DNA from: a virus
IMG/VR virus record: IMGVR_UViG_3300007712_000002
Span: 1 to 64,000 of that record
Direction: 5' to 3' (one strand)
DNA: 64,000 nucleotides
Part shown: piece after piece, positions 11,864 to 18,373 of the stretch
Layout: the number at the start of each line of letters is the position of its first letter
Numbering within the stretch: the first letter of the stretch is position 1
Notes under the pieces: generated by a model
Seen by the model: only the letters and a program-made list of their open reading frames with translations
Database searches by the model: none
Told to the model about the DNA's origin: nothing
Made by a program: the position numbers and the translations under genes

Positions 11864-14308
11864 ATGGCTACACTAGTATCACCAGGCGTTGACGTAACAG
11901 TTGTTGACGAAAGCGCATATGCCAGCCCGGGTTCTGGCACAATTCCTCTAGTCATTGTTGCTACAGCACAAGACAAGACAGATCCAACAGGAACAGAAAC
12001 TGATGGCATCGCAAAATACACAAAGGCAGCTAATGCCAATCTTGTTGTTCCAGTAACATCACAGAGAGAACTAACCCAATTTTTCGGAGACCCGACCTTT
12101 GCAGCCACTGAAGGTGCAGAGACAAGCGAATATGGTCTCCTAGCTGCATACAGTTATCTAGGACAAGGCTCACAAGCATACGTTGTCCGTGCAGACGTTG
12201 ACCTTGCAGGACTTGAATCAAGCGAAACAGCACCAACTGGACCAGCAAATGGCAACCAGTTTTGGCTAGACACTGACGCTAGCTCATATGGTATCCACGT
12301 TTGGAGCGGCTCAGCATGGGTCCTACAAACTGTAACCGTTGAGGTTGATCTTGCCGCTGCCAGCGGTGAAGTTTCTGACCCTAAGTCATATACACCATCA
12401 ACCACCGTGGGCGCAGCAGGAGACTTCCTAGTTGCCGTGCTAAGTGATGGCTCAACTGGATTTGCAATTGGTTATTTCTATAGTGACGGTTCAGCATGGG
12501 AAAGTGTTGACACAGCAAACATTGCTGACCTAGCAGCCACAGCAGTAACATATGCTCCACACTATAGCAGCCCATCATCACCAGCAGCAGACGACATTTG
12601 GGTCAAGACTACGTCACCAGGTAATGGTGTTAATCTTGTCATCTATCAGTCAAATAGCCTGGGTGTTTTCAGCCTTGTTGAGGTTGAAGGTGTTTCAAAC
12701 GACGGCGGCACAACTTACGTCGCACAAGATGGAACAAGCGCAACAGACATCATTAATGACATGACCGATGGTAATATTGCACTCAACTTTACAGCCGCAA
12801 ATGCTGGTTTTGAGATCGAAGAAGTTGATACCACAGCCAGTGCGATTGCTGAAGAAGTATATGCACAGGCAGCTGAGCCAACTGGAGATCCAGTTGCAGG
12901 AACATATTGGTATGATCCAACTGTTACAGATCTTGATCTTTACATCAATGACGGAACAGATTGGCTACGTATTGATTCAGCAGACGTAACATACTCAACA
13001 ATAGAGCCAACTTCACCAAGCACAGACGACATTTGGGTTGAAACAGATGGAACAGAAGCTGAATATCCCAAGCTTTACCGTTATGATGGTTCAAACTGGT
13101 TGCTATATGACAACACAGACCAAACCACAGACCGTGGTGTATTGTTCGCTGACTTCACAGCAGACAGCACAATCACAGCAGGTGCCGCACACGATTCAAA
13201 CAGCACTGACTTTGATTCAGCACCAGATGAAGCACTATACCCAACCAACATGCTAGCTGTCAACATGGCGCTGTCAAGCGGAACAGTTCGTGTATGGACT
13301 GAAGGCGTTTCAATCAACGGTGGAGCATCAACTGTTGATGCTTGGACCAATGCTGCCGCAAATAATGCCAATGGCAGCGGCGTGTTTAGTCGTTTGGCAC
13401 AACGTAAAGTTATTGCAACAGCAATGCAAGCAGCAGTAGCAGGTAACGAAGATCTACGTGATCCAAATCGTAACTTCACCCTACTTGCGGCTCCAAACTT
13501 CCCAGAACTAACAGACGAGTTGGTAACGCTTAACAGCGACCGTGGCGAAACAGGATTTATCATTATTGATACTCCAATGCGTCTCACACCAACAGAAGCT
13601 GTTAACTGGGTCCAAGGCACTGGCGCAACAGAAAACGGTGATGAAGGTCTTGTTACAAAGAACACCTACAGTGCGGTTTATTACCCAGCTGGGCGTTCAA
13701 CAACACCAGCCGGAACCACAGTAACCGTTCCAGCAAGTCACATGGTGCTCTACACCTACGCATACAACGACAACATCAGCTATCCATGGTTTGCTCCAGC
13801 AGGCTTGACGCGTGGTGTCGTGCAGAACGGTAGCGCAGTTGGTTACATCACAACAGAAGAAGAATTCAAGGCAGTATCACTTAGCCAAGGCCAGCGTGAC
13901 GCACTATACTTGAACAAGATGAACCCAATTGCTCAATTCCCTCTAGAGGGTGTAGTTGTGTTTGGTCAGAAGACCCTGCATTCAACCAGCAGCGCATTGG
14001 ATCGAGTCAACGTAGCACGTCTCGTTGCTTACCTACGTGAGCGTTTCGACGAGATTGCACGTCCGCTGCTCTTTGAACAGAACGACACATTGACACGTCA
14101 ACGTGCCGTCCAATTGTTCGAAAGCTTCCTAAGCGACTTGCTAACCAAGAGAGCACTCACTGACTTTGCGGTTGTATGTGACGAATCAAACAATACACCG
14201 ATTCGAATCGACCGCAACGAACTATATATTGACGTAGCAATTGCTCCGACCAAGGCGGTGGAATTCATCTACATTCCAATCCGTATTGTCAACACCGGCG
14301 CTCTATAA
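11864..14308 (+). CDS. gp18: Tail sheath protein (gp18-like) with large insertion
   Basis: LVSPGVDVTVVDES, PWFAPAGLTRG, FGQKTL..SALDRVNVARL, VCDESNNTP..IDRNEL; late promoter at 11816. Confidence 0.95.
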   Translation: MATLVSPGVDVTVVDESAYASPGSGTIPLVIVATAQDKTDPTGTETDGIAKYTKAANANLVVPVTSQRELTQFFGDPTFAATEGAETSEYGLLAAYSYLGQGSQAYVVRADVDLAGLESSETAPTGPANGNQFWLDTDASSYGIHVWSGSAWVLQTVTVEVDLAAASGEVSDPKSYTPSTTVGAAGDFLVAVLSDGSTGFAIGYFYSDGSAWESVDTANIADLAATAVTYAPHYSSPSSPAADDIWVKTTSPGNGVNLVIYQSNSLGVFSLVEVEGVSNDGGTTYVAQDGTSATDIINDMTDGNIALNFTAANAGFEIEEVDTTASAIAEEVYAQAAEPTGDPVAGTYWYDPTVTDLDLYINDGTDWLRIDSADVTYSTIEPTSPSTDDIWVETDGTEAEYPKLYRYDGSNWLLYDNTDQTTDRGVLFADFTADSTITAGAAHDSNSTDFDSAPDEALYPTNMLAVNMALSSGTVRVWTEGVSINGGASTVDAWTNAAANNANGSGVFSRLAQRKVIATAMQAAVAGNEDLRDPNRNFTLLAAPNFPELTDELVTLNSDRGETGFIIIDTPMRLTPTEAVNWVQGTGATENGDEGLVTKNTYSAVYYPAGRSTTPAGTTVTVPASHMVLYTYAYNDNISYPWFAPAGLTRGVVQNGSAVGYITTEEEFKAVSLSQGQRDALYLNKMNPIAQFPLEGVVVFGQKTLHSTSSALDRVNVARLVAYLRERFDEIARPLLFEQNDTLTRQRAVQLFESFLSDLLTKRALTDFAVVCDESNNTPIRIDRNELYIDVAIAPTKAVEFIYIPIRIVNTGAL

Positions 14309-14334
14309 TATACGTTGATAATTATGATAAATAA

Positions 14335-14365
14335 GTGGGGCAAGGTGGAAACACTTTTGCCCCAC
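14335..14365 (+). terminator. Hairpin after sheath gene
   Basis: GTGGGGCAAGGTG-GAAA-CACTTTTGCCCCAC; lies just after late promoter GATAAATA (14326), so it could instead be a 5' leader hairpin. Confidence 0.5.
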
Positions 14366-14384
14366 AATCATTAAGGATAAATTA

Positions 14385-14837
14385 ATGAATATGAAATTTT
14401 GGAAGTTTTGGACAGTATTAATATTGACAGTGTTTGTATTAGCAACAGGCCAATATTACCTTGGATTGTTTGACTTCATTCTAAATTATGATCAAACCTA
14501 CCTAACATTCGTTAACCTAGGCATTGCGGCGGTGGCCCACATCTTAATGATTCGTATGCATTGGCGAAAATCATATGAAGAATACGAACACAAAATGGTT
14601 CGTTATATGGGCGAAACCACTGTTTCGATTGGTCTCGTCGGTACATTGATTGGATTTATGATCGTTCTTTGGAGTGTGTTTGGGCCTGGGGTTGTATTAG
14701 ATCCAGCAGATACTGTTGCAATGACACAAGCTCTAACCAGTATGGCAAGCGGAATGGCAGCAGCATTGATTACATCTCTTAGTGGTATTATACTATCAGC
14801 GTTGATTAATTTTCAGTTAGTGATACTTGAAGAATGA
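14385..14837 (+). CDS. MotA/TolQ/ExbB-like membrane protein
   Basis: Four hydrophobic segments; IGLVGTLIGF and GMAAALITSLSG match TolQ/ExbB channel helices. Confidence 0.7.
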   Translation: MNMKFWKFWTVLILTVFVLATGQYYLGLFDFILNYDQTYLTFVNLGIAAVAHILMIRMHWRKSYEEYEHKMVRYMGETTVSIGLVGTLIGFMIVLWSVFGPGVVLDPADTVAMTQALTSMASGMAAALITSLSGIILSALINFQLVILEE

Positions 14838-15445
14838 CATCAGGAACTCTTAGATTAGCATTTTTGGATTTGGTATTCAACTTGTTGTTGGGTATTACGT
14901 TGATGTTTATTCTTGCCTTTCTCATGATCAATCCACCAACCCAAGGCGGACAAATTGATCCTCCCATACGCTTCATGGTCGAAATGGAATGGGATGATGA
15001 AAGTTATGTTGATATTGATCTTTGGGTCCAAGGCAAAGACAGGGATTGGGTTGGGTTTACTCGTATGGATGGTAGTTATTTTGTTCTAGAGCGAGATGAC
15101 CGCGGCACACAAAATGATACTATCATGGTTGATGGTGAGCAAGTGGTAATATCACGCAATTATGAAAATATCCGTTTCACAATTTTGCCTCCAGGTGAAT
15201 ATTTTGTAAATGTTCATTATTATAGCATTACAGGACCAACAGAAGACATCACAATTAATTTGACCATGCTGAATCCGTTCCGCAGTGTGTTTACAGACAC
15301 GGTTACGCTTGACCCTAGTCAAGAGACAACAGTGGTGTCATTCATCGTCGGACAGGATGGAAAGATCACGGACTTAAGAACAAATGTTCAGGTGAGAAGA
15401 AATACGCTTCCGCCTTCAATGAGCGATGGGAATGACGAATGGTAA
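14834..15445 (+). CDS. ExbD/TolR/MotB-like single-pass protein with beta-rich periplasmic domain
   Basis: AFLDLVFNLL (conserved TM Asp), then W...DIDLW...LERDDRG...ENI...PPGEYFVNVHYY. Confidence 0.6.
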   Translation: MTSGTLRLAFLDLVFNLLLGITLMFILAFLMINPPTQGGQIDPPIRFMVEMEWDDESYVDIDLWVQGKDRDWVGFTRMDGSYFVLERDDRGTQNDTIMVDGEQVVISRNYENIRFTILPPGEYFVNVHYYSITGPTEDITINLTMLNPFRSVFTDTVTLDPSQETTVVSFIVGQDGKITDLRTNVQVRRNTLPPSMSDGNDEW

Positions 15446-15864
15446 CAATATTAACTCTCATAGGCATATTAACTGCATTGCTTGTTTCTTTTCTGGCTTA
15501 CTGGTCACCAGCACATTGGTTTTTAAAATCTATCGCGTTGATGTGTTTTCTTATGATCGGAGTAGTCGCTTATGAGCTCTTCGTAAGGCAAATGGGGGCG
15601 CCAATACAAGCCAAACCCCAAGGTGAATATGCCTATGTTTGGCATGAGATAACAAACAAGCCATCAATTATACTCTGGGCGATCAACGACAGAGGTCACC
15701 GCTTGTATGAATACCCATACAGTCGTGAAGAAGCTGCAATGCTGGAAGAAATTAGAGAAGCCAGGAAGGATGGTCAACCACCACAGTGGTTGACATATGA
15801 TCAGCCAGAAGGCGAAGATGATCAACTCATGGTCTTACCCCACCATAATATAATCAAGCCATAA
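15439..15864 (+). CDS. Membrane protein, third gene of TolQ/R-like module
   Basis: Two N-terminal TM helices; overlaps previous gene. Confidence 0.6.
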   Translation: MVTILTLIGILTALLVSFLAYWSPAHWFLKSIALMCFLMIGVVAYELFVRQMGAPIQAKPQGEYAYVWHEITNKPSIILWAINDRGHRLYEYPYSREEAAMLEEIREARKDGQPPQWLTYDQPEGEDDQLMVLPHHNIIKP

Positions 15865-15865
15865 G

Positions 15866-15895
15866 TGAAGCCGCTCAATAAATTGAGCGGCTTCA
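15866..15895. terminator. Perfect 14-bp inverted repeat, probable bidirectional terminator
   Basis: TGAAGCCGCTCAAT-AA-ATTGAGCGGCTTCA between convergent units. Confidence 0.75.
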
Positions 15896-15900
15896 AGTTT

Positions 15901-16078
15901 ACACTAGTGCAAAGCGTTTGCTACAGCTAATTGAGGATGGCATCACCGAAAAGCGAAAGTCTCAACGGCCGTAGTTACGAAACAATGCATATACCGGGCG
16001 ATGGTCTAATACGGTTTCTATCGCCCCTCAGCCCCGTCCTCCAGCCTTATCTGGCCGTGGTCCACGAGTTTCTAGTGC
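15901..16078 (-). ncRNA. Candidate structured non-coding RNA (about 180 nt)
   Basis: ORF-free and GC-richer than flanks; several stems with G-U pairs on - strand; downstream of a - strand sigma70 promoter, upstream of terminator. Confidence 0.5.
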
Positions 16079-16168
16079 TTAGAGAAAGAGAACGCCGTAA
16101 GTGTTGACAAAATCAGTTACAAACAGCGTAGAACCGATAACAAGATTTTCAAGAGTCATAAACATCAT
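16079..16168 (-). CDS. 29-aa hydrophobic peptide MMFMTLENLVIGSTLFVTDFVNTYGVLFL (not in ORF track)
   Basis: RBS AAGAAGGA just upstream; promoter 24 nt upstream of ATG. Confidence 0.55.
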   Translation of the reverse strand: MMFMTLENLVIGSTLFVTDFVNTYGVLFL

Positions 16169-16191
16169 TCAGTTTCCTTCTTTATAGTTAT

Positions 16192-16220
16192 ACTATATAG
16201 TAAGACGTTTTGGCTGTCAA
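16192..16220 (-). promoter_or_regulatory. Sigma70-type promoter on - strand
   Basis: TTGACA(16220-16215)-17 bp-TATAGT(16197-16192). Confidence 0.75.
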
Positions 16221-16280
16221 GGAAAATTTTCTCTAGATGATAAATACTTTGAGCAGAGCGCATTATGAGGAGATAGACGA

Positions 16281-16889
16281 ATGGCAGTTCTTGACAAGCT
16301 AAGTGTCCCAGTAAACGGCGAAAGCCAAGGTACACTGATGCCAAAACTACAATACCGCTTCCGCGTTAACTTCATCAACATGGGTGCAGGCGACACAAAA
16401 GTTGCAACAAACAACGTTGTCAGCGTCACACGTCCGAACCTTACACATGATGAAGTTCTAGTGGACACATACAACTCACGTATCTACCTAGCTGGTAAGC
16501 ACTCCTGGGAGCCTGTAACCATCGAGCTACGTGACGACATTACATCAGCAACTTCAGCACTACTTGACCAACAAGTTGCGAAGCAGATCGATATGGCAAA
16601 CCAGAGCTCACCACAGGCCGGTATTAGCTATAAATTCCAGTGTCAAATTGAAAACTTGAATGGTGCTAACCCAGATCCAGTCCCGCTAGACACATGGGTT
16701 TTGAGCGGTGCATATATTTCAAACCTAACATACAATGAGACCAACTACGGCAGTGGTGGTGAATACCAGACCATTTCAGTGCAGCTACGCTATGACAACG
16801 CACAACACTTTGTTGGTGCAATTGACAACCTTAGCGATCCAAACTTTAGCGTTGAGACTGTCACACAAGCGAACGCAACAGGTTCATAA
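16281..16889 (+). CDS. gp19: Tail tube protein (gp19-like)
   Basis: LMPKLQYRFRV.F, YNSRIYLAGKHSW, LRYDNA; late promoter GATAAATA at 16239; downstream of sheath. Confidence 0.85.
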   Translation: MAVLDKLSVPVNGESQGTLMPKLQYRFRVNFINMGAGDTKVATNNVVSVTRPNLTHDEVLVDTYNSRIYLAGKHSWEPVTIELRDDITSATSALLDQQVAKQIDMANQSSPQAGISYKFQCQIENLNGANPDPVPLDTWVLSGAYISNLTYNETNYGSGGEYQTISVQLRYDNAQHFVGAIDNLSDPNFSVETVTQANATGS

Positions 16890-16957: not shown

Positions 16958-17233
16958 ATGAATTTAGATAGACTAAAAGCTCTTTCAGGAATCAATGAAG
17001 ATGGAATTGATGACGAAAAAATGGAAGACATTGCTGATTTACTAATACAAGCATTTGATGGCGATCACATGTATGCTGACATCAAGAAAACCAAAAAATA
17101 TGTTGAAATAGACACAGGCGTAAGTCAGCATGAGCTTCATGTTTTTCCTGAGCATTTGAATAAATTATATCGTCATCCCAGTGTAGCGAGTGTAACAATC
17201 TATAGAGACAAAGCGAGAGCATATCTACAATAA
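16958..17233 (+). CDS. Small protein with tag 1 leader
   Basis: MNLDRLKALSGINE. Confidence 0.65.
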   Translation: MNLDRLKALSGINEDGIDDEKMEDIADLLIQAFDGDHMYADIKKTKKYVEIDTGVSQHELHVFPEHLNKLYRHPSVASVTIYRDKARAYLQ

Positions 17234-17883
17234 TGGCAATCACCAATTTCGCACAAGAGGTTTATAGCTCAGATAGTCCAGGCACATTGGATCTCATTCC
17301 TCGTCAGAGGTTTAATTTCACATTGCAGTTGACTACACATGATCGTGCGATTATCAATTACCACAAAGTTAGTGAAGTTACACAGCCGAGTTTTAGTGTT
17401 GATGGTCAGTTGATGAATCAATACAACAAAAAGCGTTTCGTGCAGACACGAATCAATTATGATCCGATCACAGTGAGTTTTTATGACACATTTGATGACC
17501 AGTGGTATAATATCATGCGTGACTATTTTGCTCATTACTATAACGGAACAGAAGGTTTGACAAGTAGGACTCAGCTTGAGGGAACAAGCACAGTGGAGAT
17601 CAACTTTGAAACAGATTTAGGTTTTACCCCCAATGCCACACGCAACTTCTTTCCTGAGATCCGTATTATACAGAATGGTATCCGCGGCCGTCACCGTGGT
17701 TGGATACTCAAGCAACCATATATTACCTCGGTGACTGGCGATACAATGAACTACAGCGACAGCAATCCAGTTCAGTGGGCAGTAACATTCCAGCCTGAGA
17801 GTGTTCAGACATATGTTGAATCAAGTCAGTTTGATGATGGAATAGAACCTAGCCGTTCTCCACGACCATCCAGCACCGGATAA
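17233..17883 (+). CDS. Tail-tube-like baseplate/tube initiator (gp54/gp48-like)
   Basis: QPSF....MNQYNKKR.VQTRINYDPITVSFYD, tube-fold paralogue. Confidence 0.6.
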   Translation: MAITNFAQEVYSSDSPGTLDLIPRQRFNFTLQLTTHDRAIINYHKVSEVTQPSFSVDGQLMNQYNKKRFVQTRINYDPITVSFYDTFDDQWYNIMRDYFAHYYNGTEGLTSRTQLEGTSTVEINFETDLGFTPNATRNFFPEIRIIQNGIRGRHRGWILKQPYITSVTGDTMNYSDSNPVQWAVTFQPESVQTYVESSQFDDGIEPSRSPRPSSTG

Positions 17884-17896
17884 GCTAAATACGTTT

Positions 17897-18373
17897 ATGT
17901 CGACGTATCAGCAAGGCAATTATCAGCCTAAAAACACAGAAAAATATGTTGGAAAGCACATTCCCAAATACCGATCGGGTTGGGAACTTCATTTTATGCG
18001 TATGTGCGACAATCATCCCAACATCCTGGCTTGGGCTAGTGAAAGCCACCGTATACCTTATATCAATCCAATAACTGGAAAAAAGAGCAATTATGTCCCA
18101 GACTTCTTTGTGATCTATGTAGACAAGGAAGGCAAAAAACATGCTGAATTGGTTGAAGTAAAACCCAGTAGTCATATGGTAGGCAACGCAAAAGGACAAT
18201 ATGATCAAGCCATGGCTGTTATCAATGAAGCCAAATGGAATTATGCCAGACAGTGGTGTAGGCAACAGGGTATTGGATTTCGCATCATTACAGAAAAAGA
18301 AATCTTCAACAAACCACAAAAGCCACGCAGTCAGCGCAAGCCCAAGATGCCAAAAAAGAGAGCTCGTAAATGA
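17897..18373 (+). CDS. gp4: Head completion nuclease (T4 gp4, TnsA-like)
   Basis: YRSGWE, WASE..IPY, YVPDF, ELVEVKP, N.AKW..A. Confidence 0.85.
   Translation: MSTYQQGNYQPKNTEKYVGKHIPKYRSGWELHFMRMCDNHPNILAWASESHRIPYINPITGKKSNYVPDFFVIYVDKEGKKHAELVEVKPSSHMVGNAKGQYDQAMAVINEAKWNYARQWCRQQGIGFRIITEKEIFNKPQKPRSQRKPKMPKKRARK

Follow-up and report, generated by a model that had tools for sequence, protein, structure and literature searches.

Genomic setting of the locus

The locus described here lies within a window of 64,000 nucleotides, positions 1 to 64,000 of the IMG/VR virus record IMGVR_UViG_3300007712_000002, which is itself a 92.5-kb fragment with an estimated completeness of 25%. On the plus strand (Table 1) a tail sheath gene is followed by three small membrane-protein genes, the first of which has a weak match to MotA/ExbB that falls below the cut-off (E 3e-4), and then by the tail tube gene and a divergent paralogue of it; the large terminase is also among the neighbours of this region. 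The tube protein has its nearest cultured relatives in jumbo phages, for example PA5oct and Atu_ph07, at about 41% identity. The protein encoded after the tube paralogue, with its TnsA-like N-terminal domain, carries the label 'head closure' in PHROGs. Between the sheath region and the tube gene, and set against the late genes, is a discrete unit on the minus strand made up of a predicted promoter, a small ORF, a structured RNA and a putative terminator, an arrangement that had been proposed in an earlier note on this DNA and that is recovered here.

Related loci were sought over IMG/VR and JGI/ENA contigs, with the box GCGCTCTGCTNNAAGTATTTAT that precedes the tube gene as an anchor, together with the neighbouring proteins (the tube protein, a 141-aa neighbour, a 122-aa early protein and a peptide with the motif AFALAN). 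Exact-word and anchor scans covered viral, metagenome and genome collections, and contigs from sequencing runs, which are DNA only, added just one variant with a 236-nt insertion. Only seven distinct full-length copies of the RNA were recovered, that of the window included, and they are listed in Table 1 by contig. Compared at the nucleotide level with 50,697 phage records, the 501-nt region gave no match. Two further contigs, L084 and L129, proved to be chance matches and not homologues.

Table 1. Position of the predicted features of the locus and of the RNA copies in related contigs
Feature	Sequence	Position	Strand	Basis or remarks
Tail sheath gene	window	11864-14308	+	
Three small membrane-protein genes	window	14385-15864	+	
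Third small membrane-protein gene	window	15439-15864	+	convergent on the minus-strand unit
13-bp hairpin, loop UUUA (4 nt)	window	15866-15895	.	MFE fold
Structured RNA domain, 178 nt	window	15901-16078	-	directly after the ORF stop codon (TAA); MFE fold and relatives
P1 (GCACUAG/CUAGUGU)	window	16078-16072 with 15907-15901	-	MFE; compensatory changes in window/L122/L088
P2, enclosing the CCAG/CUGG hairpin	window	16068-16064 with 16037-16033	-	MFE; manual comparison
P3 (GGGCGAU/AUCGCCC)	window	16026-16020 with 16002-15996	-	MFE; manual comparison
P4, long imperfect helix abutting the P1 3' strand	window	15989-15908	-	MFE; compensatory changes in window/L122/L088
29-aa hydrophobic ORF, MMFMTLENLVIGSTLFVTDFVNTYGVLFL	window	16168-16079	-	homologous peptides in relatives
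Ribosome-binding site GAAGGAA	window	16180-16174	-	6 nt before ATG
Predicted sigma-70-type early promoter	window	16192-16220	-	-35 TTGACA (16220-16215), 17-bp spacer, -10 TATAGT (16197-16192); 11/12 matches
Conserved box before the tube gene, AGCAGAGCGC with GATAAATAC ahead	window	16239-16261	+	identical in all close relatives
Tail tube gene	window	16281-16889	+	
Second, divergent tail-tube paralogue	window	17233-17883	+	
Protein with TnsA-like endonuclease N-terminal domain	window	17897-18373	+	Pfam E 3e-21
RNA copy	L083	2690-2869		
RNA copy	L122	2541-2690		
RNA copy	L088	3161-3334	-	
RNA copy	L087	3318-3488		
RNA copy	L090	3628-3805	-	
RNA copy	L100	6184-6360		

In the window, L083, L087, L090 and L100 the three small membrane-protein genes separate the sheath gene from the RNA. 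L088, L092 and L122 lack them, and there it is the sheath gene that converges on the terminator; as the three genes are present in some carriers of the RNA and absent in others, the RNA is not tied to them. Distant homologues of the third of these genes occur in other jumbo-phage contigs that are without the RNA, and the gene that comes after distant homologues of the 141-aa gene is again on the plus strand. In relatives with a tube identity of 56% or less the sheath gene stands directly before the tube gene and the cassette is absent, so the whole leftward cassette is an insertion of a small clade. We regard the source as an uncultured jumbo myovirus and the minus-strand cassette at the sheath-tube junction as particular to that clade.

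The predicted early promoter and the micro-protein gene

The promoter that heads the unit is the best minus-strand site within 14-18 kb, and its near-consensus character, pointed out in the earlier note, is reinforced by the relatives: nine distinct related loci keep the hexamers at the exact 17-bp spacing with a spacer of varying sequence, the versions being TTGAC(A/T) followed by TATAGT, TATAAC, TATATT, TATATA or TATGGT. Hexamers, a spacing within 16-18 bp and conservation among relatives are the sequence marks of a sigma-70 promoter, and the predicted site carries all of them; transcription is predicted to start near 16185. On the other strand, the box ahead of the tube gene was compared with TATAAATA, the consensus of T4 late promoters, and reads as late-promoter-like of the T4 type. 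It is probably such a promoter plus leader, placed back to back with the early promoter.

Behind the early promoter, both the ribosome-binding site and the hydrophobic 29-aa ORF that had been proposed were found (Table 1). The peptide of L101 differs from that of the window by one amino acid, that of L088 and L091 is MTNFENLVIMATLQVVDFINVYGVAFFG, with synonymous third-position changes across ENLVI, and the L088 version can be written as ENLVI..TL..V.DF.N.YGV.F; a homologue is also encoded in L092 and L124. Because the peptide recurs, in three other versions, with synonymous third-base changes, we take the 29-aa ORF to be a real and conserved micro-protein gene.

Other relatives carry other cargo at this position, and ORFs are swapped between contigs at the locus behind the promoter. 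A different peptide of about 50 aa with the motif ..P.(I/L)AFA(L/F)AN(S/T).. is encoded in L087, L090, L100, L083 and L122, and the cassette of L088 holds three more ORFs. L101 and a contig from sequencing run X9 are versions of the window strain in which a further ORF, of 75 aa, separates the promoter from the 29-aa ORF; it is contained in a 236-nt insertion in this sister strain (L101:1758-2365; run X9, record 8) relative to window 16168-16192. This ORF (MIKTKYTELVEQLW...), absent from the window, is bounded by two near-identical repeats of a ribosome-binding site and start (AAGGAAAYTGRAATGAT), and the indel was probably made by recombination between them. A homologue of the 75-aa ORF leads the cassette in L003 and L087.

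Architecture of the RNA domain

In all seven distinct contigs a stretch of 150-180 non-coding nucleotides starts 0-9 nt past the stop codon of the last small ORF. A stem of 5-8 bp closes the stretch, and a terminator hairpin follows within 0-6 nt. No frame of the RNA region shows coding potential. Each record holds a single copy of the RNA, and the element is not repeated within the window record. The terminal ORFs that precede it are of three unrelated kinds (those of the ENLVI and AFALAN peptides, and a further small TM ORF), so the RNA is a module of its own. The element had earlier been put forward as a novel non-coding RNA or a dual-function RNA. The second description stands in the sense of an mRNA joined to an RNA domain, since the 29-aa ORF is conserved as a micro-protein gene; the RNA itself fits the description of a 3' module within an early cassette better than that of a stand-alone gene.

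Most of the stems that had been listed for the window copy are present in the minimum free energy (MFE) structure of 16195-15866, namely GCACUAG/CUAGUGU, CCAG/CUGG, GGGCGAU/AUCGCCC, CUACGGC/GCUGUAG, UUGAG/CUCAA and UCGCU/GGUGA. The exception is GCAAA/UUUGC, in place of which the MFE structure has a competing extension of the CUAC helix, UGCA/UGCA plus CGU/ACG, a pairing that is backed by related sequences, and the GCAAA/UUUGC stem is probably unused. As modelled, the 5' half of the window copy has no single fold, two registers being possible: CUCGU/ACGGG together with GGGCGAU/AUCGCCC, or UCGUG/CACGG together with GCUGG/CCGGU.

Across the copies the common architecture consists of P1, an A-rich joiner of 3-4 nt, the hairpins P2 and P3, a U/A-rich joiner and the long imperfect helix P4, whose 3' end lies 0-2 nt ahead of the 3' strand of P1. 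The equivalence of P2 and P3 between subgroups was assigned by hand. The P3 stems differ entirely in sequence from copy to copy, with complementarity always kept (GGGCGAU/AUCGCCC, CCCAAC/GUUGGG, CCCAC/GUGGG, CAUCAAC/GUUGAUG, GGGAU/AUCCC and AUAGCAC/GUGCUAU). The closing stem takes the form ..CACUAG/CUAGUG.. in two copies (window and L083), ..UGACUAG/CUAGUCA.. in two others (L088 and L122) and ..ACCAG/CUGGU.. in the remaining three (L087, L090 and L100); P1 therefore covaries between subgroups, one of its positions having U-A or C-G and a second one C-G, G-C or A-U. In subgroup A, long unpaired stretches are also conserved.

The hairpin beyond the RNA begins 2 nt past the stop codon at the end of the convergent gene (15439-15864); its distance from P1 is 5 nt. 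It had been described as a 14-bp inverted repeat; the repeat is there, but it forms 13 bp with a 4-nt loop. In the window its U tract is weak on both strands, and a simple terminator scan made no call there. Clear U tracts follow the hairpins at the same place in the relatives L087, L092, L100 and L126, and the hairpin is probably a bidirectional terminator common to both convergent units.

Folding energy and covariation

Folding energy by itself does not set the sequence apart from chance. The 330-nt unit has a folding z-score of -2.8 (the plus strand, -2.7), the two strands scoring alike because the hairpin dominates the folding energy, and the 178-nt core alone is unremarkable at z -1.0, a stability equalled or exceeded by 16 of 100 shuffles. 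Among the seven homologues the core z-score runs from +0.5 to -2.6. Energies of single sequences are thus unconvincing, and the case rests on conservation and covariation in the relatives.

Two alignments of three sequences each were built without structural information. That of the window, L122 and L088 gave an RNAalifold z-score of -5.3 against column shuffles (0/200 as good), and that of L087, L090 and L100 a z-score of -4.1 (0/200). The first contains 30 pairs with 93% of cells paired and 11 compensatory pairs, and the second 51 pairs with 87% of cells paired and 17 compensatory pairs, numbers that refer to structures predicted from the same three sequences. None of 500 shuffles did as well in either case, a control that relatedness alone can exceed, and controls in which the partner strand was slid gave 28-51% and 36-44% of cells paired, respectively. 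In the closest informative pair, L090 and L100 (66% identity), there are ten changed pairs, eight of them compensatory, one one-sided and one broken. The compensatory changes that a structured RNA should leave in an alignment of homologues were thus found in both three-sequence sets above the shuffle and slid controls, which is the general mark of a conserved structured RNA, here with structures derived from the sets themselves.

The earlier remark that G-U pairs favour the minus strand is borne out by the two aligned sets, which hold 29 G-U cells against 6 A-C/C-A cells, the kind that would read as G-U if the opposite strand were the RNA; the MFE of the minus strand is also lower than that of the plus strand in six of the seven copies. 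If the element acts as RNA, these two biases make it a minus-strand RNA.

How far the family can be treated as one is limited by its divergence. MAFFT found no register for all seven RNAs, so there is no family-wide count of covariation. Similarity of the interiors forms a chain, from L090 and L100 to L087, then to L088 and then, weakly, to L122 and the window. A covariance model built from L087, L090 and L100 placed the L088 copy at exactly the right coordinates, though only at 9.5 bits (E 0.5), and did not detect those of L083, L122 and the window. With covariance model R1 there was no hit in the rest of the window record or in three other large phage records. The interior of L083 has no detectable sequence similarity to any other copy, so homology of the whole set rests on position, P1 and architecture. 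L083 and the window have identical P1 strands and flanks (UAAGCACUAGA..., ...ACUAGUGUAAACUUGAAGCC) around interiors of about 165 nt that lack detectable similarity, which suggests either that the interior was replaced while the arms were conserved or that it drifted very fast. As sampled here, the RNA family is small and heterogeneous, seven distinct sequences in two or three subgroups.

Some lineages do without the interior altogether. In L092 (5850-5920) and L124 (470-540) it has been cleanly deleted and a GACUAG-12 nt-CUAGUC mini hairpin remains. In L126 (1640-1700) it is absent and the closing stem is itself the terminator hairpin, GGGACUAG-AAAU-CUAGUCCC-U8. These cases indicate that the RNA interior is dispensable.

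Comparison with known RNAs and cassettes

A scan of the whole window with Rfam 15 (4227 models) gave no match at the gathering score. At E up to 10 the only matches in the window were noise inside the ORF, with none on its RNA, and nothing fell on the RNA in six relatives (L122, L088, L090, L003, L100 and L005). A match to IMES-4 in the sheath-downstream spacer of L003 (1605-1686, plus strand) scored 25 bits against a gathering score of 48, is absent from window 14200-14500 and is probably noise. That the element is not recognisable as tRNA or tmRNA, as the earlier note had it, also stands: ARAGORN found no such genes in the window, and the four helices resemble a cloverleaf only loosely, with no T-loop and no CCA. 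A retron ncRNA (msr-msd) was set aside, as the 92.5-kb record, about 25% of the genome, has no RVT_1 match. So was a riboswitch or antiterminator leader: the element is downstream of its ORFs, no conserved anti-terminator complementarity was seen on inspection, and the placement is not that of a riboswitch since only the antisense of late genes lies beyond the terminator. Circular permutation of motifs between subgroups was rejected because CGUGGA is the 5' strand of P2 in both, enrichment in CsrA-type GGA because the GGA count is about that expected at random, and readthrough of the stop codon because the frames beyond it are short and lack conservation; no internal promoter for the RNA was seen.

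Several known systems have features in common with the locus. Small RNAs derived from bacterial 3' UTRs, such as CpxQ, SroC and DapZ, are 50-100 nt long, bound by Hfq and equipped with a conserved single-stranded seed. The element described here is similarly a structured RNA at the 3' end of a coding transcript that would end in the intrinsic terminator of that transcript and that processing could release, but it is 150-180 nt long, forms a closed multi-helix junction and has no conserved seed, and its processing is hypothetical. Phage T4 encodes the stable small RNAs C and D, structured non-tRNA species of about 120-140 nt and unknown function that are cut from a longer transcript; they lie in the tRNA cluster and mature with the tRNAs. 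Our element is likened to them by description, as a phage-encoded structured non-tRNA RNA. As in the hok-type mRNAs of type I toxins, the ORF of a short hydrophobic peptide precedes a 3' region that is long and highly folded; the element differs from them in having no evident antisense RNA gene, no conserved fold-back to the 5' end and no bond to one peptide family. Like the orphan motifs GOLLD, ROOL and IMES of Rfam, it is a conserved covarying RNA of unknown function in uncultured phages, yet it differs in size and architecture and matches none of the 4227 Rfam models. On its size, closed multi-helix form and lack of a database match we judge that it forms a new RNA family whose general kind is known.

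The cassette as a whole recalls those that in T4-type phages are named for their PeSLs (promoter-early stem-loops; Arbiol et al. 2010, PMC2839356; Comeau et al. 2014, PMC4122927). There, short repeats composed of a terminator and a promoter lie scattered through the genome and serve as handles for recombination (PMC2839356, PMC4122927). As in those cassettes, small ORFs occupy a hyperplastic spot among conserved late genes, bounded by a predicted sigma-70-type early promoter and a probable stem-loop terminator, and close relatives differ by indels and swaps, here the 75-aa ORF indel and ORF replacement. In contrast to PeSLs, a single cassette here has the promoter at one end and the hairpin at the other, and the 178-nt covarying RNA has no PeSL counterpart.

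Proposed explanation and alternatives

That the element is real and conserved is, on the comparative evidence, our first conclusion. The explanation that we favour for it, with reasonable though not high confidence, is a leftward early cassette in which a micro-protein mRNA carries at its 3' end an RNA module outside Rfam that acts as a stable RNA. Host sigma-70 RNA polymerase would start near 16185 and produce a transcript of about 325 nt, which would encode the 29-aa membrane micro-protein. Past the stop codon, the domain of about 178 nt would fold into four helices, with P1 closing it, P2 and P3 as hairpins and P4 stacked under P1, and transcription would end at the hairpin common to the convergent late operon. 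The RNA domain would be a conserved, independently evolving module, always last before the terminator whatever ORF precedes it, and the compact junction with the terminator hairpin would leave a nuclease-resistant 3' end product. This product would accumulate early in infection and act as RNA by binding a protein or other ligand, instead of being a mere appendage of the mRNA. Independence of the peptide, four covarying helices, conserved unpaired stretches and the adjoining terminator are the grounds on which we infer a stable 3' product that works as RNA, and the RNA probably accumulates as a stable species. Transcription, early timing, processing and function in trans are likewise what we infer from the sequences compared, which themselves show the features, how far these are conserved, the covariation and the strand.

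A bolder form of this explanation would make the junction of about 178 nt a new functional class of phage RNA, cut from an early mRNA, acting in trans in host takeover or counter-defence and inherited by jumbo phages as a movable 3' module. We put this forward tentatively, as a suggestion that is rather unlikely to be right in full; under it the RNA would serve as a decoy or sponge for a protein, bind a ligand or be a ribozyme.

The main rival is a 3' UTR that acts purely in cis, in which the domain and hairpin shield the micro-protein mRNA from 3' exonucleases and RNase E and insulate it from the convergent late transcript, with no function in trans. We consider it possible, though not probable. 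It would account for the constant place of the RNA as the last element ahead of the common convergent terminator, for the fast drift of sequence and loop motifs around helices that are kept, and for the interior-less lineages, which retain the P1 hairpin (L092) or use the GACUAG/CUAGUC stem as terminator (L126). The loop motifs that subgroup A keeps (GRAAACAUAAGA, GUAACGG..UGAGA and GAGCCGUGG) are mostly missing from the window copy, which fits a structure-only role better than a specific ligand site. What such a role does not explain is why 150-180 nt and four covarying helices, more than stabilisation normally needs, should be added where a 13-bp hairpin already exists; the long unpaired stretches conserved in subgroup A also suggest contacts beyond the helices.

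It is very improbable, in our view, that the region has no function at the RNA level and consists of filler in decay or of the scar that recombination left at a hyperplastic, PeSL-like site, its structural signals being by-products of few and related sequences. The locus is certainly plastic, as the 75-aa ORF indel, the ORF swaps and the interior deletion in L092 and L124 make plain, the core z-score is ordinary, and with so few sequences relatedness alone can exceed the shuffle control. A scar would nevertheless not be expected to concentrate compensatory double changes in the predicted pairs of two independent sequence sets, to pair in 87-93% of cells where slid controls reach 28-51%, to show a strand-specific G-U bias, or to keep its length and position while its sequence diverges beyond recognition.

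Least likely of all, and only marginally worth entertaining, is a type I toxin-antitoxin-like or fold-back unit in which the structured 3' region controls translation of the hydrophobic peptide, as fbi does in hok mRNA: small hydrophobic peptides are indeed encoded immediately upstream of the RNA, P1 begins at or no more than 9 nt from the stop codon, and the window offers a possible pairing of CAUUGUUUC, within the RNA, with GAAACUGAAUG, at the start codon and ribosome-binding site, but three unrelated peptides precede the RNA, no stretch complementary to the 5' UTR or ribosome-binding site recurs consistently from copy to copy (the AUGACUA repeat of L088 is at chance expectation), no antisense promoter was found and the peptides are without the charged tail typical of type I toxins.

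Returning to the early cassette with a stable 3' RNA, its interest lies in a setting where jumbo phages have many unexplained early genes and very few structured phage RNAs have a known role. Were the RNA a stable species acting in trans, it would add a new RNA family to phage-host biology and would mean that hyperplastic early cassettes can carry RNA cargo besides small ORFs; were it only a 3' stabiliser, it would be a modest addition to the architecture of phage mRNAs. In either case the locus is a compact, testable unit of about 350 nt comprising predicted promoter, micro-protein, folded RNA and putative terminator, and its relatives supply natural controls in which the RNA interior is deleted, an extra ORF is present or a different peptide stands before the same slot.
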